Notes: a model not told the origin generated them from the sequence alone. A stretch of 64,000 nt of DNA from a virus (IMGVR_UViG_3300017971_000203), one strand, 5' to 3'. Counted from the stretch's first letter, positions 965 to 42,522 are shown. A program made the numbers and translations.

Positions 965-1033
965 GGTTCTCCCCTCCGTTGGTTCCTATCAGGTCAGGTG
1001 CGGGTTGTCAAGCGAGGCCGAAGCCCCGGAGCG

Positions 1034-1924
1034 TCAGGCAGCTTCAGCGTCCTGTTCGAGGTGGCTGCAGGGGATCCACTTCCCGTTCCAGGGAAGGAGT
1101 CCCTCTTGGCACTCCTCTTTGGTGGTGCAGTGTGCGCAGTGTGCGCAGAGCGCTTCGTCTACAGCGAGCTCTTCCAGGAAGGTAGCGGTGATGCCGGCGG
1201 CGATGTTCGAAGCACCGGTGCTGGTCGTGGTCTTGGGGGTGTCTTCGGTCTCGGCGTTGAAGGTGTCCACGATGCCCGTGGCAACGCTCGAGGCCGCTTC
1301 TTCGTGGGAGGGCTCGGGAGTAGGCGCGGTGTCCGTCGCAAGGTCCAGAGCGTCGTTCTCGGGACCTTCGGCGTTCCACTCAGCTTCCATTTCCGCCATG
1401 GCTTCGTGTAGGGCGCCCGGGTCCTTGGTTTCTTCGGCTTCCGCCTGGGCCTTCGCCTCGGCCTTGAGCTGCTTGTCGAGAGCCTTCCAGGAAGCGCCGC
1501 CACAGTGGGGGCCCATGCCGAGGTGCACGCTCACAGGGTGCGTGAGGTCTTTGTTGCAGTGGCTGCAGGTACCTTCCAGGAGGTACTCGAGCCCACTCTT
1601 CGTGCCCTTGTCGGTGTTGTTCAGGAGGGCCGCCATCTTCAAGAGGCTTCCGTCCTTCTTCGCCTGGGAAGTCCAGACGCGAACCTTGCCGTCTTTCACC
1701 CAGCCGAAGCGGCGCCAGTGCGTCCAGTTTTCACGGTCGGGGCCGATGAGAAGGGAAACGACGCGCTCGCCCTTCAAGTAGTCAGGAGCGCTGGAATTCT
1801 TCTTCACCACCGCGATCTTGAAGGTCCGGTGCTGACCTGACTTGGTGTTGTTGATGGTGATGTAGCCGTTGTGAGTGGCGAGAAGAGCGGTCGTGAAAGC
1901 GATATGGTTGATGGCGGCGTTCAT
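1034..1924 (-). CDS. DUF6011-like Zn-binding phage protein
   Basis: CSHCNKDLTHPVSVHLGMGPHC motif; strong leader hairpin and promoter upstream. Confidence 0.7.
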   Translation of the reverse strand: MNAAINHIAFTTALLATHNGYITINNTKSGQHRTFKIAVVKKNSSAPDYLKGERVVSLLIGPDRENWTHWRRFGWVKDGKVRVWTSQAKKDGSLLKMAALLNNTDKGTKSGLEYLLEGTCSHCNKDLTHPVSVHLGMGPHCGGASWKALDKQLKAEAKAQAEAEETKDPGALHEAMAEMEAEWNAEGPENDALDLATDTAPTPEPSHEEAASSVATGIVDTFNAETEDTPKTTTSTGASNIAAGITATFLEELAVDEALCAHCAHCTTKEECQEGLLPWNGKWIPCSHLEQDAEAA

Positions 1925-1968
1925 CGTGTTCCCCTCCGTTGGAACGTTCGTCGTGTCAGCTGTCCCTC

Positions 1969-1996
1969 AGTATAGCCCCCTCGACGTGAGTGTCAA
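1969..1996 (-). promoter_or_regulatory. class A sigma70-like promoter TTGACA-N16-TATACT
   Basis: Near-identical copies at 2662-2689, 5940-5967 and 21437-21464; three copies share an upstream GATCTTTTTTCATT tract. Confidence 0.8.
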
Positions 1997-2141
1997 CCGG
2001 TAAATGAAAAAAGATCGAAGAAAGATCGACTCGACCCGGGGAGCCCATCCAGGTGGGACGTTTTGGAAAAGTGCCGAGGGGCTTCGGGTGGGCATATCAG
2101 GCGGGCCGCACAACGGCGGGAAGCTCCCCGGGTCGGTCTGA

Positions 2142-2603
2142 CTACAGAGAGTAGACAGGCTGATACTGTGCCTCTTCTACTTCTTCTGTGTCCAGGGTGA
2201 ACTTCTTCGTTCCGGTCTTCACCGTCACGTTAGAGAAGTCGTCCTCGAGAGACCACTCCTGCTCATCGACGCTCAGATCGGCGTCGACCTCGACCTCGAC
2301 CTCGACCTCGACCTGGCCGGACACCTCATCGACACCGACGGCCTCTTCCCAGGCGTCGCGGTCGATGATCGCAATCCACTTGTAGCGGCCTTTGATGAGT
2401 GTGGCGTCGCCGGAAACTCCGATCATAGAGAGGTATGTTTCCAGGATCTGGCGGTCGAAGCGGTGGTACAGCTTCACCACGATGAAGTCCTCGGGGGACT
2501 TGCGGTGGGGGCGGTAGTGGATGCCCTTGATCCCTTCGATGAAAGAGATCACGGCGTTCTGGGTGTTGATGTCGGCGATGGCGTTGGTGGTGATGTCGTT
2601 CAT
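2142..2603 (-). CDS. hypothetical protein (VE-repeat acidic tail)
   Basis: ORF with leader hairpin and promoter; (GACCTC)n repeat near 2286-2312. Confidence 0.7.
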   Translation of the reverse strand: MNDITTNAIADINTQNAVISFIEGIKGIHYRPHRKSPEDFIVVKLYHRFDRQILETYLSMIGVSGDATLIKGRYKWIAIIDRDAWEEAVGVDEVSGQVEVEVEVEVDADLSVDEQEWSLEDDFSNVTVKTGTKKFTLDTEEVEEAQYQPVYSL

Positions 2604-2661
2604 AGTTCTCCCCTCCGTTGGAGCGGGGCCTGAAGCGGCCTCCGTCGTGAAGACAACCCGG

Positions 2662-2689
2662 AGTATACTCCCCCTGACGCGAGTGTCAA
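2662..2689 (-). promoter_or_regulatory. class A promoter
   Basis: TTGACA-ctcgcgtcagggggag-TATACT. Confidence 0.8.
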
Positions 2690-2703
2690 GAGGGGAATAC
2701 GAA

Positions 2704-3738
2704 TTATTTCACTTTGTACTTCCGGGCCCCTGGATCGTCTCCTTCTCCTCGAAGGAAGGGCTGTAACCAGGTACGCCTTCTGGGGCGCTCAGAGAGCGGT
2801 ACAGAGCGAGGACCGTAGGGCACGTCTCTCCAGTGGCCCCGAACCCAGTGGCGCTTCACGGCGCTCCTGGGGCCTTTTTCGGGGCTGTTCGAAGGCTCTC
2901 GGTCGATGGACGCTCCTACCACAGTTACGATGGACGGTACGGGTAGATGATCGAGCCGTTCGAGCAGGGAGAGCCGCACTCGTTCGTTCTTCGCCTTCTG
3001 GAGCTTCTTTTCGATGCGGGCTCGTTGCCGGGTCCGGGTCCGGTCGACGCGCTTCGAGGTCTCCGCTCCCGCGCTCGAGAGGTACTGAGCCAGGTTGAAG
3101 ACCACACGGACCACACCGGCGGAAGTCTGAAGTGTCTCCCGCTCGACTTCGGGATCGTCCATCCCGGTCACTTCCACCAGGTGCTTTTTCGTGTCGGTCA
3201 GCAGCTGCTGTAGGTAGTGCTCGAGGTCTTCGAAGTCCGCCACAGCGTTCTTCATGTCGATACGCCACCAGCGGATCGCATCGTCACCATGGTCCGTGCC
3301 GTGAGGGCGGCCCCAACAGGCGAAAAGGATACGACCATCTTCTTCAACCGACACGTAGACACCGTCGATCCGGTGCCAGCCGCTGCTCCCTCCCCAAAGC
3401 TTCCAGGGGCAATCCCGGAGCGCCAAGTAGAAGGCGTCGTAGGGCAGACGGAGGTCCTCGAAGTCGATGCCCCGAAGGGACGTCGCCGAGAGCATCTCCT
3501 GGAGGCGAGGACCAATCTCGAAGGCCTGACGCCCATGGTGGATGTAGCGCATCACACTCACGGCCAAGGCCTGGGTGGCGAAGCTGGAAGGGAGCAGACC
3601 ACCAACGGTTGGGAACAGCTTTACTACGGTGTCCAGGTACGTTTCTGGGGAGAGCTCCTGCGCAGCCGACTCGAGGAGTAGGCCAATCGAGGGCAGGTTC
3701 TTGTGGACGAACTCGAGGTGTAGCGTGGCTTTCTTCAT
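2704..3738 (-). CDS. conserved phage hypothetical protein (RHWVRGHWR motif)
   Basis: Start MKKATLH after CCAACGGAGGGG; C-terminal KRHWVRGHWR...WLQPFLRG motif common in large-phage proteins. Confidence 0.7.
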   Translation of the reverse strand: MKKATLHLEFVHKNLPSIGLLLESAAQELSPETYLDTVVKLFPTVGGLLPSSFATQALAVSVMRYIHHGRQAFEIGPRLQEMLSATSLRGIDFEDLRLPYDAFYLALRDCPWKLWGGSSGWHRIDGVYVSVEEDGRILFACWGRPHGTDHGDDAIRWWRIDMKNAVADFEDLEHYLQQLLTDTKKHLVEVTGMDDPEVERETLQTSAGVVRVVFNLAQYLSSAGAETSKRVDRTRTRQRARIEKKLQKAKNERVRLSLLERLDHLPVPSIVTVVGASIDREPSNSPEKGPRSAVKRHWVRGHWRDVPYGPRSVPLSERPRRRTWLQPFLRGEGDDPGARKYKVK

Positions 3739-3766
3739 GTCCCCCTCCGTTGGGTGTGTCGACGTT

Positions 3767-4873
3767 CTACAGGGTAGACTCCGCCGGTTCCTCGCTGCTG
3801 ACAGCTCGAGGGGCACAAACGTGTTCGGCCAGATAGAAAAGGTGCTGCGGGTGGTACTTCGTGGCGAAGACCTCTCCCCGAACGGGCTTGCAGGTCTCCA
3901 CAGCTTCGGCCCAGCGCTCGGGGATGTCGTTCAAACCGAAGTAGGCGCCGAGCAAAGCTCCAGCGATAGCGCCGTTCGTGTCGGAATCTCCTCCGCGATT
4001 CACCGTGTCGAGGAGCCCGTCTTCAAAGCTCTCCGCGTGCAGCAGCTGGTAGAAGGCCAACCGGAAGCTCGTTCGCACGAAGCCGTTCGGACGCTCGATC
4101 TTCGGATCGTCGTCCCGGGCAGCCGTCAAGTCGTCCTGGAGGTCATAGAAGCAGCGCACGATCTCGGGGTCCTTGGGATAGATCGTCGGGTCGACGTTCT
4201 CTCGGCGGTACTTGGCGAATTCGCCGAGCTCCACCACCGCCCTTCGCAGACCATTCCAGGCGGCCCTCCACATCTCTTGGCGAGTGCCGCCCTTGACGCC
4301 GCACGCGATGGCGGAGTTGAAAGCCGCACACGCCATCGTGCAGTACGGATGTGCGTGTGTGATAGCACTCTCCTGGAGAGAGGCGAGTCGGACCAGCGCT
4401 TCGTCTTCTTCATCGGCGTAGAAGACGCCGAGGGGGCTGGTACGCATCAGGGAGCCGTTTCCGGCCGCGCTGCGCCCGCTTTTGTGCCACCCGAGGTAAC
4501 CGCCCATGCGCGGGTCCTTGGTCTCCTGGTAGCCGCGGATGCCCCCGATGGTGGTCCCTCCGATGTCGAAGGTGTGTTCGCGCCACTCGACGTAGCGATC
4601 CGCGATGTCTTTGGCGTCGAAGCCGTCGTGCTCGACCAGGGAGGCCGCGATACAACACGCCAGGTGTGTATCGTCTGTGACTTGACCGGCTGCCAAACGG
4701 AAGGGCCCCTCCCCGATGATCTCCGTGTGCGGTCCTTTCATCCTTTCGGGCCACTTCGGAGCGTTCGAGACGTGGGAGAACTCAAGTGTTGTACCGAGGG
4801 CGTCGCCCGTGGCCTGGCCCATCATGGCGCCCATGGCCTTGTCAGCGATGATGTTGCTTTTCTGGTAGTCCAT
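3767..4873 (-). CDS. ADP-ribosylglycohydrolase (DraG/ARH family)
   Basis: GAMMGQATGDALG, GQVTDDT, GNGSLMR, SAITH, GGDSDTNGAIAGALLGA motifs. Confidence 0.95.
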   Translation of the reverse strand: MDYQKSNIIADKAMGAMMGQATGDALGTTLEFSHVSNAPKWPERMKGPHTEIIGEGPFRLAAGQVTDDTHLACCIAASLVEHDGFDAKDIADRYVEWREHTFDIGGTTIGGIRGYQETKDPRMGGYLGWHKSGRSAAGNGSLMRTSPLGVFYADEEDEALVRLASLQESAITHAHPYCTMACAAFNSAIACGVKGGTRQEMWRAAWNGLRRAVVELGEFAKYRRENVDPTIYPKDPEIVRCFYDLQDDLTAARDDDPKIERPNGFVRTSFRLAFYQLLHAESFEDGLLDTVNRGGDSDTNGAIAGALLGAYFGLNDIPERWAEAVETCKPVRGEVFATKYHPQHLFYLAEHVCAPRAVSSEEPAESTL

Positions 4874-4884
4874 GGTTTGTCTTC

Positions 4885-5172
4885 TCAGTCCCACCCGCGG
4901 GCGGCGTATTCGGCGTCGATGAGCTGATTCAGGGCGAGCTCCAGGAGCTCTTCTTCCAGGTCTTCTCGGTTTGTGTCGAGCGCGCAGAGGGCTTCGTCCA
5001 GGGAGACCTTGACTGTCTCCCCTTCGTGGTAGAGCTCCACCTTGTCGAGCTGCACTTCGGGCGGGTCGCCCGGGTAACAGTTCTCCGGGGGTCCCGAGAG
5101 CTTGGGCGGACAACCGGGGTCGAAGTCGACGGTGAAGAGAAAGTCTTCGATCTCGAGTTCAAGGCTGGTCAT
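4885..5172 (-). CDS. hypothetical protein
   Basis: MTSLELEIEDF...LSGPPENCYPGDPPE. Confidence 0.65.
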   Translation of the reverse strand: MTSLELEIEDFLFTVDFDPGCPPKLSGPPENCYPGDPPEVQLDKVELYHEGETVKVSLDEALCALDTNREDLEEELLELALNQLIDAEYAARGWD

Positions 5173-5183
5173 CGGAAAGCTCC

Positions 5184-5465
5184 TCAGCAGTAGCACGTGT
5201 CGGCGGGGTTGAGGGGTTGCTCGGTGAACTCGAGCCCGAAGGGCGCACCCGAGAACTCGGTGGCCTTCCCCTCGGGCCCCATGATGTCGAACCACTCGGG
5301 CGGGTCCTGGCGGAGCTCGCGAACGATCTTGATGAGACGGGCGTTTAGGAGCACAGGCTGCGTAACCGCATGGTGTGTGATCACGAAGTTGTGAAGGATC
5401 AGGTAGACTACGCGGACCGAAGCTCCGCTGAGAGGCTCGATGTGGATGGTGATTTCGCGGTCCAT
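5184..5465 (-). CDS. hypothetical protein
   Basis: Start after CCAATGGAGGGG hairpin leader. Confidence 0.65.
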   Translation of the reverse strand: MDREITIHIEPLSGASVRVVYLILHNFVITHHAVTQPVLLNARLIKIVRELRQDPPEWFDIMGPEGKATEFSGAPFGLEFTEQPLNPADTCYC

Positions 5466-5519
5466 GTTGTTCCCCTCCATTGGAACAGGCTGTGAATAAG
5501 AACGTGAGCTCAATCTTGA

Positions 5520-5717
5520 CTACTCATCTTCGATGATGCGAAGGTTCTCGACCGGCTCACTCCATCGAAGCGCATTTCCGTTCCACAGCGTGCCTTCGAC
5601 GTCGACGACTGTGCCACCAGCGATGCGGCGAGGGCGTCGCAGGATTGTCACGATGCCGCAATGGATCGCGAGGAACTTCGAGCCGGGCTGGATCTGAGTG
5701 CATTTTGGGCGTGCCAT
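5520..5717 (-). CDS. hypothetical protein
   Basis: Start after CCAACGGAGGGG hairpin leader. Confidence 0.65.
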   Translation of the reverse strand: MARPKCTQIQPGSKFLAIHCGIVTILRRPRRIAGGTVVDVEGTLWNGNALRWSEPVENLRIIEDE

Positions 5718-5748
5718 GTTCCCCTCCGTTGGAACAGGGTGTTGTGAT

Positions 5749-5931: not shown

Positions 5932-5939
5932 TGTCTCCG

Positions 5940-11187: not shown

Positions 11188-12687
11188 TCATACCTTGTCC
11201 GTCTTGATGGCTTCCGCCATCGTACCCCAGCCCCTGGAAGCCATGGACACGAAGTTCAGGACCTGGAGACTCCACCCGTAGATGAAGTAAGCCGGATCGT
11301 TGGGCTCGAGGAGCCCCGTGCGATACGGGGAGACGTCCACGATGAAGACGTTGATCTTCTTGTTGACCATCCGACGATACCGGTTCAGCACGTCGATGAA
11401 AGGCGAACCCTGGTTCTGCTGCTCGTCCGTGATGAGGATCAGGTTGTCCGCCTCGAACTTCTCCTGGAGCATCCACTGGGCGATGAGGTCCGTGCGCGTA
11501 GACCCGCTCGAGCGAATGGTCCGGGCCTGGGACAGGACACTGTCCCGCATCGAGACCTTCGCTTCGTGAAGGCAGTGGTTGAAAAGGAAGAAGCGCCCGT
11601 TGTAGTTGGTCTTCTTCATCAGAGAGATGGCGAAGATCCCGCCGATGAGAAGGAACCGGCCCTGCATGGATCCGGAGATGTCCAGGCAGACCACGGTACG
11701 CCCCGGGATCTCCGGGAGGTTCCCGAAAGAGAGCTCCAGCGCGTCCCGCAGAGAGTCCTGGGCCCACGGCGAAGACACGTGGTCGATGGCATCCAGAAAG
11801 CGGAACGGGAGGATCTTCGACTTCCCGATCACCTCGGGGTCGTTGAACTTCCGCTGCACCATTTCCCGGTGGTTATCCAGCACACCGTGGCGCTCCAGGG
11901 TCGCGAGGTTCCTCAGCAGCGCGAAGATCGGCATCTGCGGAGCGATGGCGTCCCAGACCTCTGTGTCCTTGCCGGCGAAGGTGCTGGCCACTTCGTGAGG
12001 CAACCGACCCTCGGTGATGAGCCGGACCTTCTCCTTGGCATCCGTGGCCTTCTTCAGCGCTTCGAAGGCGGCGATCTGGGGGAGCTCTTCCAGGTTGGTC
12101 TCACGGCCCATCATGTAGTCGGCCAGGTCGCTCCGCATCCTCTTCGGGTGCAGGATGATCATCAGGTCCCGGATGGACCACTCCCCGACCTTGCTGGCGC
12201 CGTACTTGATCGCCCAGTACTCACCCAGCTTCTGGGCCAGCCACCTACCGGCGGTGCGCTTGACGCACTTGCCGCTCTTGTTCCAGCCCAGAGAGCACAG
12301 AATAGTGATGAAGTCCCGGAGGTCGTTCGGGGTGCGGACCACCTGACCGAAGGCACGCTTGAAGCGGTCCTTGTCGGTCATAAACAACTTCGCCAGCCCG
12401 AACACAGGCTGCGTGCGCATGAAGCCCTTGTTGCGTCCGTACCCGAGAGCCTTGGTGGCGAACTCGGGGTCCTCGGCCATCATTCGGTCGTGGATCGTGT
12501 GGCTCTCTTTCAGGAGGTCCTTGGACGACACGTAGAACGTGTTTCCAAGGGTGTTGGTCAAGAGAGTCTGCAGGTACTGCTCTTCGAGCGGGCGTTCCCA
12601 CGCCGGGTACCGGGCCGGGTCGCGGGTTGTGATCGGTGCCAGTCGACTACGCTGCCTCGGATTGAACAGGGCGTTCACGCGGCTCAT
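11188..12687 (-). CDS. Ro60/Rsr TROVE-domain RNA-binding protein with C-terminal vWA domain
   Basis: LTNTLGNTFY, QMPIFALLRNLATL, SKILPFRF, MIDAS motif VCLDISGSM, LILITDEQ; own promoter at 12781-12809. Confidence 0.93.
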   Translation of the reverse strand: MSRVNALFNPRQRSRLAPITTRDPARYPAWERPLEEQYLQTLLTNTLGNTFYVSSKDLLKESHTIHDRMMAEDPEFATKALGYGRNKGFMRTQPVFGLAKLFMTDKDRFKRAFGQVVRTPNDLRDFITILCSLGWNKSGKCVKRTAGRWLAQKLGEYWAIKYGASKVGEWSIRDLMIILHPKRMRSDLADYMMGRETNLEELPQIAAFEALKKATDAKEKVRLITEGRLPHEVASTFAGKDTEVWDAIAPQMPIFALLRNLATLERHGVLDNHREMVQRKFNDPEVIGKSKILPFRFLDAIDHVSSPWAQDSLRDALELSFGNLPEIPGRTVVCLDISGSMQGRFLLIGGIFAISLMKKTNYNGRFFLFNHCLHEAKVSMRDSVLSQARTIRSSGSTRTDLIAQWMLQEKFEADNLILITDEQQNQGSPFIDVLNRYRRMVNKKINVFIVDVSPYRTGLLEPNDPAYFIYGWSLQVLNFVSMASRGWGTMAEAIKTDKV

Positions 12688-12809: not shown

Positions 12810-13091
12810 GGACGCTGGGCTTCCACCAGCTCCGCCGTGTTTACGACTTGGTGGGACGCCGAAATAGTTGGAAGAACGCCCCGAGTCGCGATGCACGGTG
12901 CCTCGTTCTGCCTCATCGACCGGCCACCTCCGATTCAGGCTCTTCCTCGTGGACTCCTGCAAACGTCCGAACCATTTGCAGGGCCACGGAAGGCCGAAGG
13001 GTAAACTGCTGTCCACACGGGCACGTGTACGTGTTGTGTGTCAGCAGGTAGTCCAGGGTGTTGGGGAGCTTTCTACCACAGAAGCACTTAG

Positions 13092-13804: not shown

Positions 13805-13954
13805 AGCCGTCTCCTTGTGATGCGAAAGGTGGCGGCACTTGCCTTTGCAGCCCTAAATTCCGGCGCCTGCGCCCCTCATTCCCCGGGCCGGCCCTCTACT
13901 CAGTGTCTGCAAATCACTCCCACGGCGTAACGCCGCAGATCACGCTGCCGCCAG

Positions 13955-14028
13955 AAGGGCCGGAGGGACTTGAACCCCCACCCCCGAGGGTAGAAACCTC
14001 GTGCTCTGTCCTATTGAGCTACGACCCC
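13955..14028 (-). tRNA. tRNA-Arg(TCT)
   Basis: Cloverleaf GGGGTCG/CGGCCCT, D-arm GCTC..GAGC, anticodon arm CGAGG-TTTCTAC-CCTCG, T-loop TTCAAGT. Confidence 0.88.
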
Positions 14029-14462
14029 TGGATGCGGGGCTTCCACCCGCTACGTCGTGTCCTGACGACTTGGAATGCTCGAGCTGCAGCCGTGCCTCGG
14101 AATGAGGCGGGGAGCCAAACAGTCTCGAAATCGACCGCTCCCTCGGCATATCATGCGGGGGCCTATCTGTAGAACCCTCCCCCTTTCAACTTGGCTCTCC
14201 TTCCCAGGCTGGCCGGACAGGCGCGCTTTCACCACTCTGGCTACTTTGCGCCAACGAGCTCTGACAGCTCGTCTCCGGGTATGGGCAACTTTCCCCGGTG
14301 TCCAGCGCGAACACAGGTCGGATCCACACCCGCCACGCCTTACTGTGGTTCTTTCCATCTGCGTGACCGTCCCCGTCCAATCGCTGCCCGGGGGCTGGTT
14401 GCCCGGTCCAGAGTCCCCGGGAAGAGGTGTGCTTTTTTCATGCGGGCCGACCTCGAAAAAGA

Positions 14463-14534
14463 TGGACTGGCGTGGAATCGAACCACGGCTCCCTGGGCTT
14501 CAACCAAGCGCTCTACCGACTGAGCTACCAGTCC
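14463..14534 (-). tRNA. tRNA-Phe(GAA)
   Basis: GGACTGG/CCAGTCC acceptor, CTTGG-TTGAAGC-CCAGG anticodon arm, T-loop TTCGATT. Confidence 0.88.
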
Positions 14535-14864
14535 GCTCCCTGCTGCCTTCCAGCACGCCCTACTTCCGCAGCCAACGGATTCGGGAACGCCCCAGAAGAA
14601 CAGCCCCCAGCTTGATGCCTCCGGGGCTTGAGGCGGGGAATGGATCCCGATGGAGGGGGTTTCCCGGCCCCCTCCGTGCCCAACCCGATACATCAACCTT
14701 CCAGGCTCAGTGCACATCCCCTGGTAGGCGCTGGGCTTCCCTGTATCTTCCACGGCTCCCGAGCTGCCTGTGGTTTCAGCACAGGCCCGAGACTTCAGAC
14801 GTCGAGTGCTGTCGACTCCTGGACCCCGTCAGGGATCAGCACGTCCCTGGGGAGTACCGTGAAA

Positions 14865-14934
14865 TTGCGGAGGCGGGAGTTGAACCCACAAGATCCAGGT
14901 TATGAGCCTGGGCGCCGACCGTCGACTCTCCGCA
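14865..14934 (-). tRNA. tRNA-Met/Ile(CAT), shortened D-arm
   Basis: TGCGGAG/CTCCGCA, CCAGG-CTCATAA-CCTGG, T-loop TTCAACT; D-arm atypical. Confidence 0.75.
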
Positions 14935-15064
14935 GAACGGGAGGACCATTCCTCCCGTGTGTTTTTGCTCCAAACGTCACCCCGCGAAGCAGTGCGGGAC
15001 TGGAAAATTCCAGACTCCGACTCTACGATCAGGGATCCCCTCCAGAACTGACCGCAGGACCGAA

Positions 15065-15136
15065 CAACGGACCTGGGAGTCGAACCCAGTACCTCCGGCT
15101 GCAATCACCGGCGCGCAACCCTTACACCTGTCCGCT
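15065..15136 (-). tRNA. atypical tRNA (loop GATTGCA; nominal TTG/Gln)
   Basis: AGCGGAC/GTCCGTT acceptor, CCGGT/GCCGG anticodon stem, CTGGG-TTCGACT-CCCAG; lacks U33 and purine 37. Confidence 0.6.
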
Positions 15137-15307
15137 ATACGGGGGAATGACGGTCCCCCATGAACCGCTCCGCGAGAGTGCGCAGGAGTACACATGGCAT
15201 ACCCTTTTCGAACGGAGGTGAACCACCGAAGAGGTGAAACGCCTCCCTGCAGTCTGCCACCACAGGGAGGTCGTTTCAAGAGCGGCACCCTACCTCACGC
15301 TCTCCCA

Positions 15308-15674
15308 TGGAGATGGCGGGAGTTGAACCCGCGTCCGCAATGCTTCGGAATCGTGCTTCTACGTGCGTATCCTGTGTACGCTACCCCTCGAGACGCCCAC
15401 AGGCAGGCTCCTCTTCGGGAGGTCCAGCTCTGATTGTCGGAGACCAGCTCGCCCTGAACCAAGGCTCTCTGGCGTCGTATCCTGCTGATTGACGTCAGCA
15501 GCTCGAGCCGCAGGAGCTCTCGAGGCCGACGCGCTCACGCAGCTTGTGCGTAGGCGAATTGCTCAACATCGTCGTTGGCAGTTGTCGTTGTCTTCGCAGT
15601 TTGTCGAGGTCACGAAGACCACCCCCGGCACGCAACACGTCCCTCCATCACCACGTCGAAACCGTGTCATCCCC
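15308..15674 (-). ncRNA. ssrA: tmRNA, tag (A)ANDDVEQFAYAQAA*
   Basis: 5' GGGGATGACACGGTTTCGAC, 3' GACGCGGGTTCAACTCCCGCCATCTCCA, G3:U70; tag ORF 15579..15535. Confidence 0.95.
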
Positions 15675-15820: not shown

Positions 15821-15977
15821 TTTGCTCGAAGATGATTGCCGGAAGGTGTGCAAAGCACATTCTATGTCTGATGCTCTGACCAACTGAGCTACCACTCCAT
15901 CTGTGGAGTGGGCAGGATTCGAACCCGCGACCGCCAGATTAACCGAAGTAACCCTCACGAGCTGCGCTCCGAGCAAA
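15821..15977 (-). ncRNA. YrlA-type Y RNA (Y7) with permuted tRNA-like domain
   Basis: Terminal stem TTTGCTCG/CGAGCAAA; T-arm GGTTCGAATCC precedes D-arm TAGCTCAGTTGGTCAGAGC; shared CGGAGCG..AGGGTTACTTCG..ACCTT..TCATCTTCG scaffold. Confidence 0.85.
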
Positions 15978-17059: not shown

Positions 17060-17198
17060 TGTCCGAGGATAAAAATTGGGAAGGTACTATACGGCGCTCT
17101 TCCCCTGAGCTATCCCCTTCACAACGGAAGGGGAGCAGGATTCGAACCTGCGACCTCCGGCTCCGAAGGCGAAGTAACCCTCTCCGCCGCCCCGGACA
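17060..17198 (-). ncRNA. YrlA-type Y RNA (Y1) with permuted tRNA-like domain
   Basis: TGTCCGGGG/CCTCGGACA terminal stem; T-arm GCAGGTTCGAATCCTGC, then hairpin, then D-arm TAGCTCAGGGGAAGAGC. Confidence 0.85.
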
Positions 17199-21133: not shown

Positions 21134-21436
21134 GAGATCCCCCTCCGTTGGGATGTGGTGGTCAGGCGTTGCGGCCGGCGTCGGTCAGCAGGTAGTAGGT
21201 AGTCCAGTGGTGGCGCGTGTTACCATCGCGCAAGTATTCGACCCTGTAGTCGGTGTCGAGCCACAAGAGGAGACCCCGTCTACACAGCGCCTTGAGGGTG
21301 CCCGCGTGGAAAGCGTCGGTGCTGATGCGACCCGCGCGGCGCCTTTTGGCGAGCTCGAGGGCCTTCTTCATGTTTGGACTGAGCACTTTCACTGTGTCCC
21401 CCTCCGTTGGAACGTTCAGCAGGTCAACTGAGGCTA

Positions 21437-24146: not shown

Positions 24147-24413
24147 TCAGGAGGTCTTCACTTCCATGGTCTTGCCGGGTCCGACAGGGACTTTCATAGT
24201 CTTTGTCAGAGGCGCCGGCTCGAGCAGACGTTTGAAGACGAAGGAGCGATCCTGGGTGGAGTGTCCACCCTTCACGACAGTCTGAACTGGGCGGCTCATT
24301 TCAACCACTTCCCAGCCCTCGGAGCCGAGCTCGTTCAGTAGAGACGTGAACTGTTCGTCAAGGTGGGCTACAGGAACGCGAAAAGTCTTCACCAGATACT
24401 CGAAGCGTTGCAT
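24147..24413 (-). CDS. DUF4177-like protein
   Basis: FEYLV...LNELGSEGWEVV...FVFKR. Confidence 0.75.
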   Translation of the reverse strand: MQRFEYLVKTFRVPVAHLDEQFTSLLNELGSEGWEVVEMSRPVQTVVKGGHSTQDRSFVFKRLLEPAPLTKTMKVPVGPGKTMEVKTS

Positions 24414-24850
24414 CAGGTCCTCGCGGACGCGAACCGAAACTTGTTTCGATCCACTTCCTCACGGTTGATCAGCACCGACCGGGGCGCTGCGAAGCGCAAG
24501 CGCACTGCTTCGGACGTGCGATCGATCGACAGTATGCCGATCTTGATCACCATCACCCCGGAACAGGCCGCGTAGCGCAGGATGTGGTCCTCGTCTTCGA
24601 ACGCTGTGATAGTGAAGGTCTTCCGGCTCAAAGGGCGGACCGCTCCGTCGTCTTCCTCTTCTGACAAGACAGGGTCCATGAGCCGGGGCGTCGTAAACCG
24701 AAGCTGTGCGACGCCCTTGTGTCGATTCGACCGGACCAACTCCACCGTGATGATGTCGTGCTCCCAACTGCAAGTAGGGATCCGAAGGATCACCTTCTCA
24801 CTGGGATACCGTTCGATACTGAGCGCGGGCATTCGTTTGCGTTCTCTCAC
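24413..24850 (-). CDS. tandem (two-domain) CsrA/RsmA-like RNA-binding protein
   Basis: Domain 1 LSIERYPSEKVIL..ITVELV..AQLRFTTPR; domain 2 IKIGILSI..AVRLRFAAPRSVLINREEV (compare CsrA VRIGVNAPKEVSVHREEI). Confidence 0.75.
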   Translation of the reverse strand: MRERKRMPALSIERYPSEKVILRIPTCSWEHDIITVELVRSNRHKGVAQLRFTTPRLMDPVLSEEEDDGAVRPLSRKTFTITAFEDEDHILRYAACSGVMVIKIGILSIDRTSEAVRLRFAAPRSVLINREEVDRNKFRFASART

Positions 24851-25212
24851 TTTCCCCTCCTTTGGAAATCAGGCGATGACCGCGCCAAAGCGCAGTCCCT
24901 TCGACGCTATCAAGACGTCTACGGATTGTCAACCACTTTCGTGGAGTCTCGGTTCTCCCACGGCTTCGCGGTTGGCGTCCGTTCTCAAGTAATCGTTTCC
25001 GAGGTGTCGGGCAAACTCCCGGGCTCTTCCCGATCCAGGTTCCGCTTTGTCTAGTTCGAGAGCGGCCCAGACCCTCATGGGATGCGGGAGATCGCCGTTT
25101 TCTTTACAGCGTTCTCTATAGGAGCTGTACCAGGCCCGGATTTTTTTGCTCTTGTCTCGTTTCTTTCTCGGACGGTTGCGTGGTCTTCTCTTCCTGTTAC
25201 ATCTGTCCTTCT

Positions 25213-28266: not shown

Positions 28267-28969
28267 CGCCCCCTCCGTTGGTGGCAGCCTCTGGGAACTG
28301 TTCGTACCTTATCAGGACACCGAAGGATTGTCAAGAACCCTTTCGAAAGAGGCCTTCTCTCAGCTCACCCAGGATCTCGGCGGCCTGGGAGTAGAGGTCG
28401 TCGGTGGGGGTCTTGTCGGAGTGGAGCTGTGCCGGCTCGGACTCGGTGCCCCAGCGCTCCAACCCCTGGGTCTCCCGGACGTCTTCGATGAGTTGTTGGA
28501 TTCGGCTCATGGTCTCTCCCTTCAACGTGGGCTACTTCAGAACATGCTCTCTCCACCCTACCGGAGGGGCCTGCGGCGCGTCCAGTCTCCCCAATCTTTA
28601 GCGCGCGCATGTGCGCCCGGCGTGCGGGCGTGAGGGTCGAACGATCGTTTTACGATCGTTCGGCTTCGGACTGGAAGCCGCCTTCCGCCTCCCAGTTCCG
28701 AGCTTCTTGTTTGGCCTCCGTAGCCCGAGCTCTCTCTTCGGCTTTGCGCACCCATACGACCAGCTCTCGGACAGAGTCCCGGGTCAGTTCTTCGAGGACC
28801 AGCTGGGCGAAGCCGCCATCTTCGTAGGGACCGGCCACGAAGACGGCTTCGCACCCGTCACGTTCGACCCTGATGACCGCCTTCTCTTCTCCGAACTGCA
28901 TCTGGCGGAAGATGGTGAGTGCGTAGAACGTCTCATCAGGTATGAAGAGAGCGGTTCCCTCTCCGATAA

Positions 28970-36540: not shown

Positions 36541-38000
36541 GACGACCCCTCAGCTCTCTTGAGCAGCCGTGGCATCAACACCCAGCGCATCTGGGAGTCG
36601 GGGGCGACCACCTCTTCGTCGCGCCCCTTCGGGTGCTCGGCGATCATCTTGTCCAGGAAAGCCACCGCTTCACACTCCTCTTTGTGAGGAGAAAAGGCAG
36701 CGCAGAAGTCTCTGTACTCGCCCAGGGTCCCGGGACAGGGGTTGCCTTCTTCGTCTTTTCTCATCGTGTCCTCCGTTACACGTCCGACGCTTGGCGCGTC
36801 CGTTGATAGTCGGTCTCACGCTCTTCGACGTACTCGCCCCGGTGTTTCCGCCCCACGCGGTTGATCGTCCACCAGGGCGACCAGGGCTCGGAGCGCTTGT
36901 TGCGAAAGCGCACCTTGGCGTTCTTCTTCAGCTTGTCTGCCGGCAGGTACGTGGTCGTCCACCACGTCTCTTCGGTCTCGGGGTCGTCCCGGTACAGCGA
37001 ACACTGGCAGTAGTACTCATGGCGTGGCATCGGTCTCTTCCTTGCGCTCCCGGTACCAGACGAAGCCGCACTTGTCGTCGCATTCGGCCACACAGAGGGT
37101 CTCCAGGCGGTAGTGCATCGCAGGAGCGCAACCGCACTTCGGGCACAAGTCGCCACGGACACCCAGGACATCTTCGCTTCGGCCCCCGAGTTCCGGTGGT
37201 AGCCTGATGTAGTCAGGGGTGCCGATGAGCAGGGCGCAGGAGCCGTCCAGGTCTTCACGCATGGGGAGCTGTCCCGGGAACTTGTCCAACCAGAGTGTGC
37301 TCATGGCTTCCTCCCGTAGAAGAGGCGCGTGAGCACCTCCCATTCCGTTCGTTCACGGAGCTTCTTGATAGCGCGCGCGGGCGCGCCCAGGTACGTGTAT
37401 TCGAGGAGCGCCACGAGGGCCGCCTGGCTATTCTCTCTCAAGTACTGCCAGGTCTGGAGCCACGGGGGCTCGGCCTTGTTCTCTTCTTCGAGCTGCACCC
37501 GAAGGTCGAGAAGCGCCTGGATCCGGTGCGCGCTCGGCGAACCCACTTCCAGGAAGCCGTTCTCGAGCTCTTCCCGGACCTTCTCGTCGATTCGTCGCAG
37601 TGTTTCATGGCGGTGCATGGGTGTCCCCCTCCGTTGGAACTGCACACATCGTGTGTCGATGTGACACCACACACCGTAATAGGTCGCTATTCGATTGTCA
37701 AGCGGAAAAGAGGAAAAAGATCAGACGGAGTAGACGGGGGTGTCCGAGAGGACCATGGCGTCGAAGATGGCGAGCCCGATCGGGAGCTTTCTTCGGCGGC
37801 ACTTCGGACACTCGAGGCTACCTCCATCGGAGTCGACCATGTGCTCCCGGCACTTTCGGTCGGGACAGTCCGAGGGCAGCAGGGTGGACTGGTTCTCCAG
37901 GACGGTACTGTGGTTCAAGTCTGCTCGAGGCATGGCGCCCTCCTTCGGGTCCTCTCCCCAATCTTTTGTATACCCGGAAACGAACGCTTCCGGGCCACTC

Positions 38001-39206
38001 TCACCAGCTTCCATCGCGAACGGTCTCTGTGTCGACCACCTTCGGGGTGCCGCAACTGACGACCTCCTCGACCGGGGCGCTCGAATCGTCCTGTTGACCC
38101 TCTAAGCCCTTGTCCTTGTCCATCTCGGAGATGGTCTTCACCTTGCCCAGCGTCTCGGAGGCCTCCACGTCACCAAGGTCCTTGTCGTAGAGGTCGAACC
38201 AGGGGATCCCGGCCGCGAAGTACTCGTCCTTGCCGATGGGGCTCGGGGGCGGCGCTTCGCCGGTGATCTGCTGGTACATCTCCGCGTTCACCAGGTGGAC
38301 GAACACGCGCTGCTTGCAGTCCTGGTCCCAGACATGGACACCGTGGGGGTCGGGATAGACCTGCTGACGCATCGAGCCGCCCGCACCCATCCCCATCAGA
38401 GCCGCCTTCGGGGCGTTCTCCTGGAAGCTCCTCTTCGCGTGTCTCCGAATCACCGTGGGCTTGATGGCGTGCCTCATGAAGCCCTTGGCAACGCCTTCAG
38501 GGGCTCCCGCAGGCGCAGTGCTGCACAGGACCGCGCTCTCGAGGGTGTGCCCGCCGCTGGTCTTCACTTCCCCGGAGTAGCTCTCGAAGCCGTCGTCGCC
38601 GTCCCAGCCGAGGCTCTGCCCGGAGGCTCCGCCAGCAGTCGCAAAGCCGCCCTTCGCGACACCGCGGGAGCGCGTGCCTCTGCGCTTCTTGGGCTTCGGG
38701 AAGTGCTCTCGCTTGCCCGGGTAGACGGCCAGCTGCAGGCCGCCGTGCTTCTCCTCACCCGTGACCTGACCTTCCACGGTATAGCCCATGCCCAGGGGCA
38801 TCGCCACGAACTGGCTGACCTTGCCCTCTTCGGACTTGATGCCGTCGATCCACTTCTGGGGCGGAGCCACGAGGTAGTCCTGCTTGTCCTCGCTGAGACC
38901 GTCCTTCCAGGGCTCACCCGTGATGGCGTCGATCTTCCCGACGCCAACCTTCACGGCGCAGGGCGCGTGCGTGCGCAGTCCGAACTGGATCCACATCGCT
39001 TCGCGCTGGTGGAGCGGCAGGAACACGCCGCCCTTCTCCACCCAGCTGGGCGGCACCTTGTCCTTGTAGTCGTCGATGCGCTTGAGAGGGAAGCGTCCGA
39101 CCGAGCGTGGCAGGGGGTAGGTCTTTCCGTCCTCCGGGAGCCGGAAGGTTCTGTGGAAGACCACGATCAGGTTCTCTGTGTGCAGTTCATTGCCGATGAC
39201 TTTCAT
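38001..39206 (-). CDS. conserved hypothetical protein
   Basis: FHRTFRLPEDGKTYPLP..GRFPL..GGVFLPLHQREAMW..QFVAMPLGMGYTVEGQVTG; start overlaps the end of cassette 14. Confidence 0.8.
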   Translation of the reverse strand: MKVIGNELHTENLIVVFHRTFRLPEDGKTYPLPRSVGRFPLKRIDDYKDKVPPSWVEKGGVFLPLHQREAMWIQFGLRTHAPCAVKVGVGKIDAITGEPWKDGLSEDKQDYLVAPPQKWIDGIKSEEGKVSQFVAMPLGMGYTVEGQVTGEEKHGGLQLAVYPGKREHFPKPKKRRGTRSRGVAKGGFATAGGASGQSLGWDGDDGFESYSGEVKTSGGHTLESAVLCSTAPAGAPEGVAKGFMRHAIKPTVIRRHAKRSFQENAPKAALMGMGAGGSMRQQVYPDPHGVHVWDQDCKQRVFVHLVNAEMYQQITGEAPPPSPIGKDEYFAAGIPWFDLYDKDLGDVEASETLGKVKTISEMDKDKGLEGQQDDSSAPVEEVVSCGTPKVVDTETVRDGSW

Positions 39207-41640
39207 GTCGTCTCCTCGTAGTGGCGGGGCCTCCGCCCCTGCAAACTCGAAAGCTCAAGCGGGTTACGAAGTCGTCTGTGGCCGCAAAGGAAGAGCGGTG
39301 CCCCGAGTGGAACTGGATATCGAGACCGCCGCGAAAGGTGCTGCCCATGACGATTCTGTGTGTGTCGTCCCAGTAGTGGACCCGGATGACATCTTCAGGA
39401 TCCGGGGCCTCAGTGAACTCGAGAGCCGAGAAGCCCTGAGACAGCTCTCTCCAGCGGAACGTGCCCACATCACCCCCGTGCGATCCGGAAGCCGACATCG
39501 CTGCCTGCTCCGATCTGGTGTTCGTCGAGGCGTCCATCGTGCTCGAGGAAGTCTCGGTCGTGGGTGCGCACGTAGATGACATTGTTGTAGCAGAAGCCTT
39601 TGAGGAGGGACTTGTAGGAGGCGGTCCGGGGCCTCGGTCCGTTCCCGAGGGGCCAGGGGTTCGGGATCTCAGGCCAAAAGTGGCGGCGATCACCCGTAGC
39701 AGATCCGGAAGCCGACGATGTCGTGAGGACTCCCTGGGTAGAAGTTCTCGTCGTGGTAGTAGTTGGTCCGCTTGTGGAGAGTGCCGTCGCTTCTGTTCCG
39801 GTCCCACCAGGACCCGCCCCGGAGACTCCAAAAGGGCGGGGCTCACCCCCAGCAGATCCGGAAGCCCGTGAAGAAGATGCCACGTGGTCGGAGGCTCCCG
39901 TTCCGTCGTCCGAGATGGATCCGGAGAGCGTTCGTGAAGCGGGAGTAGCACTCGCCTCTTCGAACGCGGCGCCGAAAGGGCGCTTACCCTCTGCAAACCC
40001 GGAATCCGATGATGTAGAGCTTTCCTGTGATTCTCCATACCGTGCTGCATCTGCCGAGGGGTTGGAAGTCCTCTGAGAACCACGAGTTCCCTCGGCACCT
40101 GCTAAAGGGCCCCTACCCCCAGCAGATCCGGAAACCTTTGCCCCAGGAGTTGTCGGCGAAAGGTTCGGAGTCACGCTTCGCGACGCTGGCGACACCTCTG
40201 AAGAGGCTGCTGGCGAAGCCTCGCCCGGTCTTGGCGACAGGGAAGACGAAGTGTCGAAAGGGCGCTCAAGTACCTCCGTCGGATCGGACGATCCGGAATC
40301 CGAGCAGCTTGTCGGACATGGTTGTGAGCCCGGTTCCCCGGGCGTTGAGACGGAGGGAGACCGCGGAGCCGCCCCCTCGACAGATCGGGATCCAGACAAA
40401 GGGCGGCGCTCACCCCCAGCAGATCCGGAAGCCGGCGCTGGTCCAGTCCCCGAACTCACGCCCCTGTCTTCGGCGGGATGCGGAAGGCTGGAGTCGCATC
40501 CAGGACCCCGCTCGGACGACCCGAAAGGGACAGCGTCCTCCTCATCCTCGGCAGATCCGGAATCCGCGCCGCTGGTGGGCCCAGCTTCGTCGTGGGGAGA
40601 AGCACTTCCCAGACAGTCGCACGCGCGCGTAGACGGCGTCGAAACACCCTCCCCGGGGCTTGCCATACGGCTCCCGCCAGGGCTCCCCGGAAAAGGGTGA
40701 TCACCCCCAACAGATCCGGAAGCCGATATGATGGGCCCGGGTCCACATGGTGCGGGGGGTCTTTCTCCCGGGTCGCAAATTGTGGGGAGGGTACGGGTGT
40801 GCTGCATCGAGCCATGCGCCCCCTCGGAGGAAGCGGTCCCGAGGAAAGGGTCAGGAGTGTCCTCCTCGACAGATCCGGAAGCCCCAGCGGCCGGCTGCTC
40901 CTCTTCCGTATCCTCTGATGGAGAGCCGTCCGAGAGCGGGGGTAAAGAACTCGATGAGGTAGATCCCCCGCTCCCCGAGTCGAAAGGGCGATCAACCTCG
41001 GGCGATTCGAAAACCCTTACCAAATGAGGAGGAGGCGAAGGGCTCGGATGACCGCTTCGCGAGGCTGGCGACGCCCCTGTAGTAGACGCTGGCGAAGCCC
41101 CGCCCGACCTTGGCGAAGGGGCTCGGTCCTCGAGCGACCCGGTCGGCCTCTGTGGTCTCTCCCCAGGGACGAAAGGGCGGCGATTACCCCTGGGATCGGA
41201 CGATCCGGAAGCCGAGGAGCGTCCCCTTGTACTCGGGGTAGCTCCCAGGGCCTCGGTGGGCGATCCGGGCTCCGTGACCAGAGGAGAGTTCCCTGAACAA
41301 GCGTCCGCCTCGGAAGTTGGCACTTCGAAAGGGCGCCGTCTACCCCCGGCAGATCCTGAACCCTGGTCGAACGGTGTAGAAGACGTAGGTCTCGAGCTCG
41401 ATGTACCAGGACTTGAAGCCCTCGGGGTGTTGGTTCCCGAGCCACTCGCGGCGGGACAATCGGAGGGGTGGGTCGGGGTAGAAAGCGCCGCGGAGAGTGA
41501 GGGATCGCCGTGCCCAAAAGGGAGCTCAACCTCGGCAGAGCCGACGCCCTCGGGGTCCGGCTCGGGCGTCTGGGACGAGGCTGAGTCTGGAGAGGGGCAG
41601 GGGCCAGTCGAGAGAGGAAGTCGTTCGATCTCGAAATTGA
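39187..41640 (-). repeat. array of about 15 alternative C-terminal cassettes, 12 headed by CCCTTTN -1 slippery heptamers
   Basis: Heptamers at 41516-22, 41327-33, 41171-77, 40982-88, 40844-50, 40691-97, 40523-29, 40397-403, 40256-62, 40103-09, 39974-80 and 39830-36; each -1 frame ends GFR(I/V)xxG-like then stop. Confidence 0.92.
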
Positions 41641-42505
41641 CCTCCGCGGGCTCTCCGCGCTGGTGCCGTTTCTTCGACGTCACCTGCCTCATGGGAGGGT
41701 CCGGCTTCTGCTCCGCCATAGTGATGTCGGGCTTCGCGTGCTTCATGTGTTCGGCGTATTCGTCCCAGCACCACTCCCAGACGTTCCCCAGGCAGTCGTA
41801 GAGGCCCCACCTGTTCGGAGCCAGCTGCCGAACCGCATGAGTCCGACCATCTGAGTTCTGGTCAAACCAGGCGATCTCTTCCAGAGACGCCTCGCGCCAC
41901 TCGACTTCGCCACCACACCGGTCGCACACCCCAATCTCGTACCGCGCACCGTCGCTGCCCGCCCTGGCGGCGTACTCCCACTCCACCTCGGACGGGATCC
42001 GGAAGCCCGGGCCCTCCTTCCACAGGTAGCCCTGCTGGCGGTCCCCGATGTACGCGGGCGGTAAACCGCAGCGCTCCGAGAGCGCGTTGCAATACTCGAT
42101 GGCGTCGTACCAGCTCACGCACTCCACCGGGCGCTCGAGAGGATTGTCGCCCTGCTGGAAGTGGCTGGGGTTCTTCCCCATCACCGCTGCGTACTCGGAC
42201 TGCGTGACCGGCGCAGAAGCCATCCAGTACGTGTTCTCGATCGTCACCTCGATCTGATGCTCGTTCCGCCACCGACCATCTTCGTCCGGCGGACTGCCCA
42301 ACACGTCCGTACCGGCAGGGATCTCCACCAGCTCCGGGATCACAACGCCCTCCAGACGTGCGAGGTCAAGGCGCGCGAGCACGTCCCCTCCCCGGCTGCG
42401 AAGCCGCAGGAACTCCCGGAGAGCCGCCTCGTCATTGTCCACCGCCAGCTTCCCCAAGCGCTCGAGCTGCCGCACGTTGGTCGTTGATTCTCTCGTTGTC
42501 TCCAC
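39470..42505 (-). CDS. FGE-sulfatase (SUMF1/C-type lectin fold) protein with frameshift-selectable C-termini
   Basis: GTG start after CCAACGGAGGGG; PVTQSEY, NPSHF, PVECVSWYDA..YCN.LS, FRIPSEVEWEYAARAG, PNRWGLYDCLGNVWEWCWD; RGGSW..GFR ending absent until the cassettes. Confidence 0.92.
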   Translation of the reverse strand: METTRESTTNVRQLERLGKLAVDNDEAALREFLRLRSRGGDVLARLDLARLEGVVIPELVEIPAGTDVLGSPPDEDGRWRNEHQIEVTIENTYWMASAPVTQSEYAAVMGKNPSHFQQGDNPLERPVECVSWYDAIEYCNALSERCGLPPAYIGDRQQGYLWKEGPGFRIPSEVEWEYAARAGSDGARYEIGVCDRCGGEVEWREASLEEIAWFDQNSDGRTHAVRQLAPNRWGLYDCLGNVWEWCWDEYAEHMKHAKPDITMAEQKPDPPMRQVTSKKRHQRGEPAEVNFEIERLPLSTGPCPSPDSASSQTPEPDPEGVGSAEVELPFGHGDPSLSAALSTPTHPSDCPAASGSGTNTPRASSPGTSSSRPTSSTPFDQGSGSAGGRRRPFEVPTSEADACSGNSPLVTEPGSPTEALGATPSTRGRSSASGSSDPRGNRRPFVPGERPQRPTGSLEDRAPSPRSGGASPASTTGASPASRSGHPSPSPPPHLVRVFESPEVDRPFDSGSGGSTSSSSLPPLSDGSPSEDTEEEQPAAGASGSVEEDTPDPFLGTASSEGAHGSMQHTRTLPTICDPGERPPAPCGPGPIISASGSVGGDHPFPGSPGGSRMASPGEGVSTPSTRACDCLGSASPHDEAGPTSGADSGSAEDEEDAVPFGSSERGPGCDSSLPHPAEDRGVSSGTGPAPASGSAGGERRPLSGSRSVEGAAPRSPSVSTPGEPGSQPCPTSCSDSGSSDPTEVLERPFDTSSSLSPRPGEASPAASSEVSPASRSVTPNLSPTTPGAKVSGSAGGRGPLAGAEGTRGSQRTSNPSADAARYGESQESSTSSDSGFAEGKRPFGAAFEEASATPASRTLSGSISDDGTGASDHVASSSRASGSAGGEPRPFGVSGAGPGGTGTEATALSTSGPTTTTTRTSTQGVLTTSSASGSATGDRRHFWPEIPNPWPLGNGPRPRTASYKSLLKGFCYNNVIYVRTHDRDFLEHDGRLDEHQIGAGSDVGFRIARG

Positions 42506-42522
42506 CGTCCCCTCCGTTGGTC

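Follow-up and report, generated by a model that had tools for sequence, protein, structure and literature searches.

Can a phage carry, in a single genome, a CsrA-type translational regulator and a dedicated set of operators for it? This question is raised by the virus genome IMGVR_UViG_3300017971_000203, a 128,887-bp IMG/VR record of which we analysed a window of 64,000 nucleotides (bases 50,785-114,784 of the record). All coordinates below refer to the window unless stated otherwise. CsrA is one of the main bacterial post-transcriptional regulators. CsrA, RsmA and RsmE are homodimeric translational repressors that recognise A(N)GGA in hairpin loops overlapping the Shine-Dalgarno (SD) sequence, and CsrA autoregulates its own translation (PMC7652899). 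The window contains a CsrA-like gene (24413-24850, minus strand) and twelve copies of a 12-nucleotide motif, CCAANGGAGGGG, that covers ribosome-binding sites (RBSs). We give a probability of about one half to the reading that this gene encodes an autoregulated, single-surface, CsrA-derived translational repressor acting on the motif copies as candidate operator hairpins.

A candidate tandem CsrA-like protein

The CsrA-like gene starts with GTG and encodes 145 aa, in which half 1 covers approximately residues 7-66 and half 2 approximately residues 76-134. A preliminary description of this DNA had proposed two CsrA units fused into a single-chain pseudo-dimer, and the PF02599 profile search and the structure prediction that it named among its checks were performed. 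In Pfam, CsrA (PF02599) was the sole match (E 4.8e-4, 20.5 bits), with residues 102-134 on profile positions 18-48, and half 2 alone scored 22.6 bits (E 1e-4). Three CsrA models of NCBIfam matched the same segment in the same register with E-values from 9.4e-6 to 7e-3; the best was 2e-5 with the whole protein as query and 9.4e-6 with half 2 by itself. Comparison of half 1 with half 2 gave an E-value of 1e-5 and 29% identity over 59 residues. These results support the prediction that the gene is a divergent internal duplication of a CsrA-like unit. As a single chain of two diverged units, the predicted protein is a derived architecture and not a canonical member of the family.

A homologue, P0003, is encoded by a second phage (phage B), represented by the 16.3-kb contig Ga0180437_10006079 (L098, L106), which was found by a metagenome scan for the 18-nt hairpin. 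P0003 has 135 aa, is 31-33% identical to the 145-aa protein and has the same two-unit layout; CsrA was again its sole Pfam match (E 0.02). A small CsrA profile built from nine sequences (E. coli and eight phage examples) aligned VRLRFAAPRSVLINREEV of the window protein to VRIGVNAPKEVSVHREEI of CsrA, which spans beta4, beta5 and the helix, and placed R130 at the position of R44. In hhalign, with two sequences per half, the second halves matched CsrA with 79.8% probability (E 1.4e-5). In the first halves, LSIERYPSEKVILR aligned to CsrA residues 2-15, with I12 and R14 at the positions of L4 and R6. Invariant in both homologues were ALSIER, placed by hhalign on CsrA residues 2-6 (beta1 of half 1), LRF.A.R.V.INREE.D, which covers beta4, beta5 and the helix start of half 2 with the equivalents of R44/E45/E46, and an acidic DED patch at the start of half 2.

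In CsrA, beta1 from one subunit and beta5 from its partner together make up each RNA-binding surface, and L4 and R44 are critical (PMC7652899). Since beta1 and beta5 lie side by side in the CsrA dimer, the conserved ALSIER and LRF..INREE blocks would compose exactly one RNA-binding surface. This composite surface keeps the RNA-binding residues, I12 and R14 from beta1 of half 1 and R130 from beta5 of half 2. The other surface has A83 and E64 at the equivalent positions, in an acidic setting, and the key arginines are missing. The proposed fusion is supported by the similarity of the halves and by the CsrA-only matches, but the pseudo-dimer holds in part, as the RNA-binding residues are present on one of its two surfaces only.

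AlphaFold2 predicted an all-beta protein of 5+5 strands. The predicted local distance difference test score (pLDDT) was 66 and the predicted template modelling score (pTM) 0.62 with the single sequence, and 68 and 0.65, respectively, when the homologue was added; model 1 has a helix after the second unit. With the protein's own model in the ESM Atlas, the nearest entry was a 98-aa viral cluster (template modelling score, TM, 0.81 over 92 residues), in which 91% of the members have PF02599. The ESM Atlas neighbours by sequence features were viral proteins of 97-133 aa, some with CsrA matches. In BFVD, a database of predicted viral structures, unnamed phage proteins of 88-118 aa were matched with probability 1.0 and TM 0.55-0.70.

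These data also bear on an alternative in which the 145-aa protein is not a functional CsrA relative but an unrelated small beta-sandwich with a chance likeness to CsrA over about 30 residues. Several results speak against a CsrA relationship. All CsrA matches lie under the curated thresholds (20.5 bits in Pfam against a cut-off of 27), and those of NCBIfam lie far below cut-offs that are set for same-function orthologues. In fold searches of the PDB with Foldseek and of 48,161 chains with VIA-align, the matches were generic beta-sandwiches and CsrA was absent. As solved CsrA consists of two intertwined chains, its absence from single-chain fold searches is expected; it is not positive evidence either. 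A phmmer search against 1.84 billion representative proteins retrieved the protein's own cluster only, with no homologue beyond P0003. The ESM Atlas feature scores of 0.80-0.83 are in a range that shuffled proteins reach too, which likewise fits a beta-sandwich of unrelated origin. This alternative is very improbable all the same, since the three independent CsrA models are the sole matches and agree in register, and P0003 independently matches only CsrA. Moreover, the matching segment has the critical R44/E45/E46 motif, invariant in both homologues, and the ESM Atlas cluster provides a structural match to viral CsrA proteins. In the other homology searches, word-indexed searches matched only P0001 and P0003, and neither tblastn against 50,697 phage records nor a viral_contigs scan detected a homologue of the CsrA-like protein. 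The phmmer match P0002 was rejected as a spurious low-complexity repeat protein.

The 12-mer motif, its hairpin and its promoters

Twelve minus-strand leader sites had been listed in the preliminary description, and all twelve carry CCAANGGAGGGG. As had been stated, only N varies; ten sites have C, site 5472 has T and site 24854 has A. The count of twelve compares with 0.13 expected from shuffles, and 0 of 100 shuffles reached 12. When the scan was extended beyond the window, 17 copies were found in the whole record, on the minus strand only. Each copy is followed after 5-11 nt, mostly 5 or 8 nt, by an ATG, GTG or TTG start and contains a perfect GGAGG at canonical spacing to it. The information content across the 17 sites is about zero directly outside the 12-mer. 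The downstream genes comprise the CsrA-like gene, an FGE-sulfatase-domain gene and 13 genes without any family match; one of the remaining two has a sub-threshold DUF6011 match and a PHROG of unknown function, and the other such a PHROG only. They are mostly ORFans located in the variable region. The 17 proteins show no mutual similarity at E<0.01, and the motif repeats are thus not derived from gene duplication; paralogy of the motif genes was accordingly ruled out as the origin of the repeat.

The invariant CC and GG of the motif flank the loop AANGGAGG. At least 4 contiguous pairs enclose this loop at 8 of the 12 window sites, site 3742 has 3 pairs, and sites 971, 28270 and 42509 have the invariant CC/GG only. 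The stems occur as GTTCC/GGAAC, GTTCC/GGGAC, CTCC/GGAG, ATCCC/GGGAT and TTTCC/GGAAA. In ViennaRNA, the loop-presenting hairpin was the minimum-energy fold at 10 of 17 sites. Pairs 3-5 were complementary in 37 of 51 cells, compared to 26.9 expected when the arms were permuted among sites (p<5e-5), and in 22 of 36 cells, compared to 14.7, when only the 12 distinct arm combinations were used (p=6.5e-4). Over 20 sites, 82% of the cells were paired (58% in shuffles), each of the five pairs showed compensatory changes, and the covariation score was 0.57, which 0 of 500 shuffles reached, compared to 0.15; slid registers scored much lower. Since 3 of these 20 sites were chosen for having stems, the arm-permutation test is the unbiased one. 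The flanks are complementary and show compensatory changes, and AANGGAGG therefore sits in a hairpin loop, in agreement with the earlier claim that most sites form hairpins with covarying stems. The predicted loop presents ACGGA, AUGGA or AAGGA with the SD inside it and is closed by 2-6 bp.

The minus strand of the record has 30 TTGACA hexamers, mostly belonging to two classes of sigma70-like promoters. Class A has the form TTGACAATCC..TGATAGCGT and class B the form TTGACACTnGCGTCAGGGGnnTATACT. Downstream of eleven of these promoters stands the motif, at variable distances of +29 to +68 nt. Its position is thus tied to the start codon rather than to the promoter, and many of the genes that it marks are promoter-proximal and belong to the variable region. 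Five class-B elements were matched by a search pattern with the AAAAGATCGATCTTTTTT palindrome, a T-run, TTGACAC..TATACT and then a leader ending in the motif. The class-B -35 boxes in the window lie on the minus strand at 1996, 2689, 5967 and 21464, and further copies lie outside it; the palindrome and T-run precede most class-B copies, though not the one at 2689.

All sites described here are on the minus strand. The copy at 24854-24865 is the A variant, CCAAAGGAGGGG, with a TTTCC/GGAAA stem. It stands 5 nt before the GTG of the CsrA-like gene and is a candidate autoregulatory operator, in line with the site that had been noted ahead of this gene. The operon headed by the CsrA-like gene has a class-A sigma70-like promoter at 24904-24932 (TTGACAATCC, 10 nt, TGATAGCGT), whose -35 and -10 boxes are kept in phage B. 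The T variant at 5472-5483 (before a 93-aa ORFan) and the copy at 5721-5732 (before a 65-aa open reading frame with ATG at 5717) both have a TGTTCC/GGAACA stem. GTTCC/GGAAC is found at 1931-1942, before a 296-aa gene (DUF6011) with a class-B promoter 54 nt upstream. GTTCC/GGGAC is found at 21399-21410, before a 76-aa ORFan with a class-B promoter upstream, and at 37626-37637, before a 105-aa ORFan with a class-A promoter upstream. The CTCC/GGAG stem lies at 2610-2621 (153-aa ORFan, class-B promoter upstream) and the ATCCC/GGGAT stem at 21140-21151 (116-aa ORFan). The 3-bp stem at 3742-3753 precedes a 344-aa gene. Of the copies with CC/GG pairs only, 971-982 precedes a 90-aa ORFan, with a class-A promoter 29 nt upstream, and 28270-28281 a 176-aa ORFan, with a class-A promoter 53 nt upstream. 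The third, at 42509-42520, precedes the GTG of the FGE-sulfatase-domain gene; this site had also been noted, and the domain was recognised by Pfam at E 2.4e-37. Two AACGGAGG loops fall outside the strict 12-mer. One (36764-36783, before a 75-aa gene) has another stem, CGTGT/ACACG. The other (440-459, before a 204-aa gene) is flanked by TGAG/CTCA, and its minimum-energy fold pairs the SD with an upstream CCUCC instead.

A second over-represented RBS, AGGAGACGR, is used by about 15 genes, mostly tightly coupled internal genes. It has the form (T/A)AGGAGACG(G/A), frequently overlaps the preceding gene's stop codon and is present in phage B too; examples in the window precede minus-strand starts at 682, 19372, 39206, 51004 and 59862. 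With this element and the motif in one genome, the phage uses two distinct RBS classes.

The perfect GGAGG and its canonical spacing raise the possibility that the hairpin is merely a cis-acting, structured strong RBS, in which the SD is kept single-stranded and which is spread in shuffling cassettes of promoter, leader and RBS. No dedicated protein would then be needed, and the CsrA-like protein would act on host mRNAs or other RNAs, as is thought for canonical phage and plasmid CsrA homologues (PMC11879866, PMC9928087). The target genes are variable-region ORFans, and the five class-B cassettes resemble the promoter early stem-loops (PeSLs) of T4-type phages (PMC2839356, PMC4122927), both of which suit this explanation. 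Twelve invariant bases between unconserved flanks, however, far exceed the need of an SD. To judge from the conserved 3' end of 16S rRNA, CCAAC and the trailing GG add no pairing with the standard anti-SD. Most sites also lack a conserved flank able to drive recombination, and the use of AGGAGACGR by other genes indicates that the motif marks a gene class and is not a general optimisation of RBSs.

The second phage and the genomic setting

The contig of phage B shares its sample of origin with a contig that encodes a major head protein of 86% identity. Its gene order is conserved: Ro60 (75%), a peptidoglycan-binding-domain gene (66%), T5orf172 (51%), DUF4177 (59%) and the CsrA-like gene for P0003. 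The 14.3-kb locus of phage B has the motif twice, both behind class-A promoters. Copy 1, GTTCCAACGGAGGGGAAC-ATG, precedes an 82-aa ORFan and is syntenic with window site 21399; the hairpin is the same, and the promoter class and the gene differ. Copy 2 is CCAAAGGAGGGG, at the head of the CsrA-like operon, and is the same rare A variant as in the window CsrA leader. Between the CsrA-operon leaders of the two phages, alignment is limited to the -35 box, the -10 box and GCCTGA..CCAAAGGAGGGG.

In phage B, a DUF1281_C gene lies between the operon-head motif and the CsrA-like gene. The motif-ATG (L106:3176-3260, equal to L098 about 13000-13090) starts an unannotated reading frame, which enters the DUF1281_C gene in a different frame; an AAGGAGG RBS of that gene's own lies 60 nt downstream. 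This start could be an upstream open reading frame, the remnant of a displaced start or a stand-alone operator. In both phages, a DUF4177 gene overlaps the stop of the CsrA-like gene (24147-24413, minus strand, 88 aa, in the window; L106:4285-4503 in phage B). It is much better conserved than the regulator (59% compared to 33%), and its product may be a partner or antagonist of the CsrA-like protein.

More distant relatives were identified through the major capsid protein. G001 (91.5 kb, same G+C, 64% major capsid protein identity) has synteny limited to the structural and replication block, and neither the motif, a CsrA-like gene nor any over-represented extended RBS was found in it. None of G001-G005 has the motif, the CsrA-like protein or a PF02599 match. 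As the accessory regions of G001-G005 are unrelated to those of the phage, this co-absence says little. No close relative was found among 50,697 deposited phage genomes. In a viral_contigs scan, the 18-mer had no match and a 14-mer gave 52 single matches, which is chance level. The same 18-mer is present in two bacterial-looking metagenome contigs, one of 753 kb (L104:319-336, L105:2845-2862), within the longer common context GGGGATTCACC..CCACCGT-18mer, and this context may represent a conserved non-coding RNA unrelated to the phage.

The second phage bears on the cis-acting RBS in two ways. The syntenic site with the same hairpin but a different promoter and gene is what cassette shuffling would give. 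Against it, the motif is kept together with a fast-evolving regulator in which strong conservation is confined to the parts that form the predicted RNA-binding surface, and a related phage of equal G+C (G001) has no such RBS. Overall, we consider a purely cis-acting RBS unlikely, although it deserves serious consideration.

A further explanation is that the hairpins are read by another trans-acting factor: host CsrA, sensed or titrated by early leaders, some other protein of the phage, or a phage RNA able to base-pair with the loop. In favour of this, the site agrees with the general CsrA consensus (PMC7652899), at least 17 high-affinity sites expressed early could serve as a sponge, and a minus-strand complement of the loop, CCTCCGTT, occurs once in a non-coding RNA cluster (15211-15218). 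On the other hand, a single 8-mer complement is the chance expectation in 129 kb, and a genome_contigs search identified no host. A search for a homologue of the T4 endoribonuclease RegB (PF10715) gave no match at E<=1 in the record, which is estimated to be 69% complete. Co-conservation with the phage's own CsrA-like gene favours a protein encoded in cis, and another reader of the hairpins is improbable.

The virus record is linear, with a CheckV completeness estimate of 69% and a G+C of 61%, and about 160 of about 177 genes are on the minus strand. Its phage-like hallmark genes include those for the major head protein, portal, head protease, DNA polymerase, UvsX-like recombinase and helicases. 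The T4-type late promoter TATAAATA was not found. The window also encodes Ro60, an RNA ligase bearing a tRNA-binding domain and an ADP-ribosylglycohydrolase. The Ro60 gene (TROVE and vWA) adjoins three tRNAs, a tmRNA scoring 159 bits and two weak YrlA-like matches (36.5 bits, the gathering score being 69); this cluster occupies 11188-12687, 13954-15674, 15863-15941 and 17089-17159. CCTCCGTT, the exact complement of the AACGGAGG loop, resembles the 16S anti-SD and lies in the non-coding stretch about 90 nt downstream of the tmRNA gene, as a single, chance-level occurrence. The open frame with the N-terminal FGE-sulfatase domain (39470-42505, minus strand, 1011 codons) has near-equal G+C across codon positions (0.65/0.64/0.65), unlike other genes of the phage.

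Proposed circuit and comparison with known systems

In the circuit that we favour, the protein would be a single-chain, internally duplicated CsrA whose surviving surface is composed of half 1 beta1 and half 2 beta5. CCAANGGAGGGG would be an SD inside an A(N)GGA-type operator, usually in the loop of a 4-6-bp hairpin, before the starts of 17 unrelated genes, many of which are first behind a sigma70-like promoter and presumably early. The protein may bind the loop and compete with the 30S subunit, and translation of the motif gene class would be shut off once the protein accumulates. Through the A-variant site, repression would extend to the protein's own operon. Such a function could be likened to that of T4 RegA, built from the CsrA fold. 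We infer that the protein binds the motif, that it represses and does not activate, and that the targets are early, and the case for a regulon is strengthened by the co-conservation of protein and motif in the second phage.

Other observations are unfavourable to this circuit. GGA is present in any strong SD. CC/GG pairs only are found at 5 of the 17 sites, and a sixth has 3 bp. Known high-affinity CsrA loops are usually 5-6 nt long, and extra loop bases lower the affinity of RsmE (PMC7652899); the loop of the motif has 8 nt. The likeness to the CsrA/RsmA target claimed earlier is present in ACGGA in a short hairpin loop over the SD, as in the published consensus. The CsrA-like gene of phage B is preceded by an ordinary GGAG RBS, with the motif about 700 nt upstream, before the unannotated ATG. 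Finally, the co-occurrence of protein and motif rests on two phages.

A broader and more tentative proposal is that of a virus-autonomous circuit, in which a fused, asymmetric, one-surface CsrA and a dedicated 12-nt operator would control about 10% of the phage genes and the protein's own operon. It is possibly also the first case that can be read from a broader, hitherto unrecognised class of phage proteins with tandem CsrA-like units. The ESM Atlas and BFVD have clusters of about 88-133 aa, with CsrA matches in 12-91% of the members of three Atlas clusters. The locus provides a regulator and a well-defined candidate operator set in one genome, with about 20 natural operator variants, two protein variants at 33% identity and a predicted RNA-binding surface. 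If the proposal is true, the protein would be a natural single-surface CsrA, a counterpart of the engineered R44A heterodimers used to dissect site bridging, and the pair could serve as a compact orthogonal translational repressor and operator.

The phage protein resembles CsrA/RsmA/RsmE in beta3-beta5 and the helix start, including the R44/E45/E46 equivalents, in a beta1 similar to MLILTR and in five predicted strands per unit. The candidate targets with ACGGA in a short hairpin loop over the SD and the site in its own leader are also alike. CsrA is a 61-aa homodimer, whereas the phage protein is one polypeptide of two diverged units. It appears to retain one RNA-binding surface and so could not bridge two sites. 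The loop measures 8 nt, which falls to 6 nt when the flanking A and G are taken as paired, the candidate regulon consists of the phage's own genes, and the protein scores below the family thresholds. In addition, no sponge RNA or FliW homologue was identified in the phage.

RegA of T4 is an autoregulated translational repressor of many early mRNAs, whose sites are AU-rich and poorly defined. T4 also has translational operators for gp43 and gp32, and that of gp43 is a short hairpin with an 8-nt loop that adjoins the SD. The phage protein is like RegA in its proposed binding to the RBS regions of early messages and of its own message, and the motif is like the gp43 operator as a short hairpin with an 8-nt loop by the SD. 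Unlike RegA sites, the candidate operator is a sharply defined 12-mer, and there is no kinship with RegA in sequence or fold, Pfam giving only CsrA.

PeSLs consist of a terminator-like stem-loop and an early sigma70-type promoter that flank variable-region ORFans (PMC2839356, PMC4122927). The class-B elements share this layout of stem-loop and promoter. PeSLs are not defined by an RBS, however, and 12 of the 17 motif copies lie off class-B elements, with no common flank. The PeSL layout is found at the class-B elements only and leaves the 12-mer elsewhere unaccounted for.

Among phages, canonical CsrA genes are common, with 88 phage records having one. The 123-aa proteins of Pseudomonas F116/Hollowayvirus, the CsrA-like regulators of Vibrio phages and plasmid RsmQ are, like the protein described here, CsrA-type regulators on mobile elements, which also include integrative and conjugative elements. 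In the Pseudomonas Hollowayvirus type (L005, L007, L008), the 123 aa consist of a canonical 55-aa domain and a conserved, beta-rich C-terminal extension of about 65 aa. The role of phage-borne CsrA in infection was described as untested before a knock-down screen in 2025, in which knock-down of one phage csrA homologue shrank plaques (PMC11879866). The canonical examples compared share 57-68% identity with E. coli CsrA; they are one-domain proteins, presumably dimeric, whose targets are thought to be host mRNAs, and none has been reported with a matching repeated operator in its own genome. In a full-text literature search, no natural CsrA was described as tandem, single-chain or duplicated.

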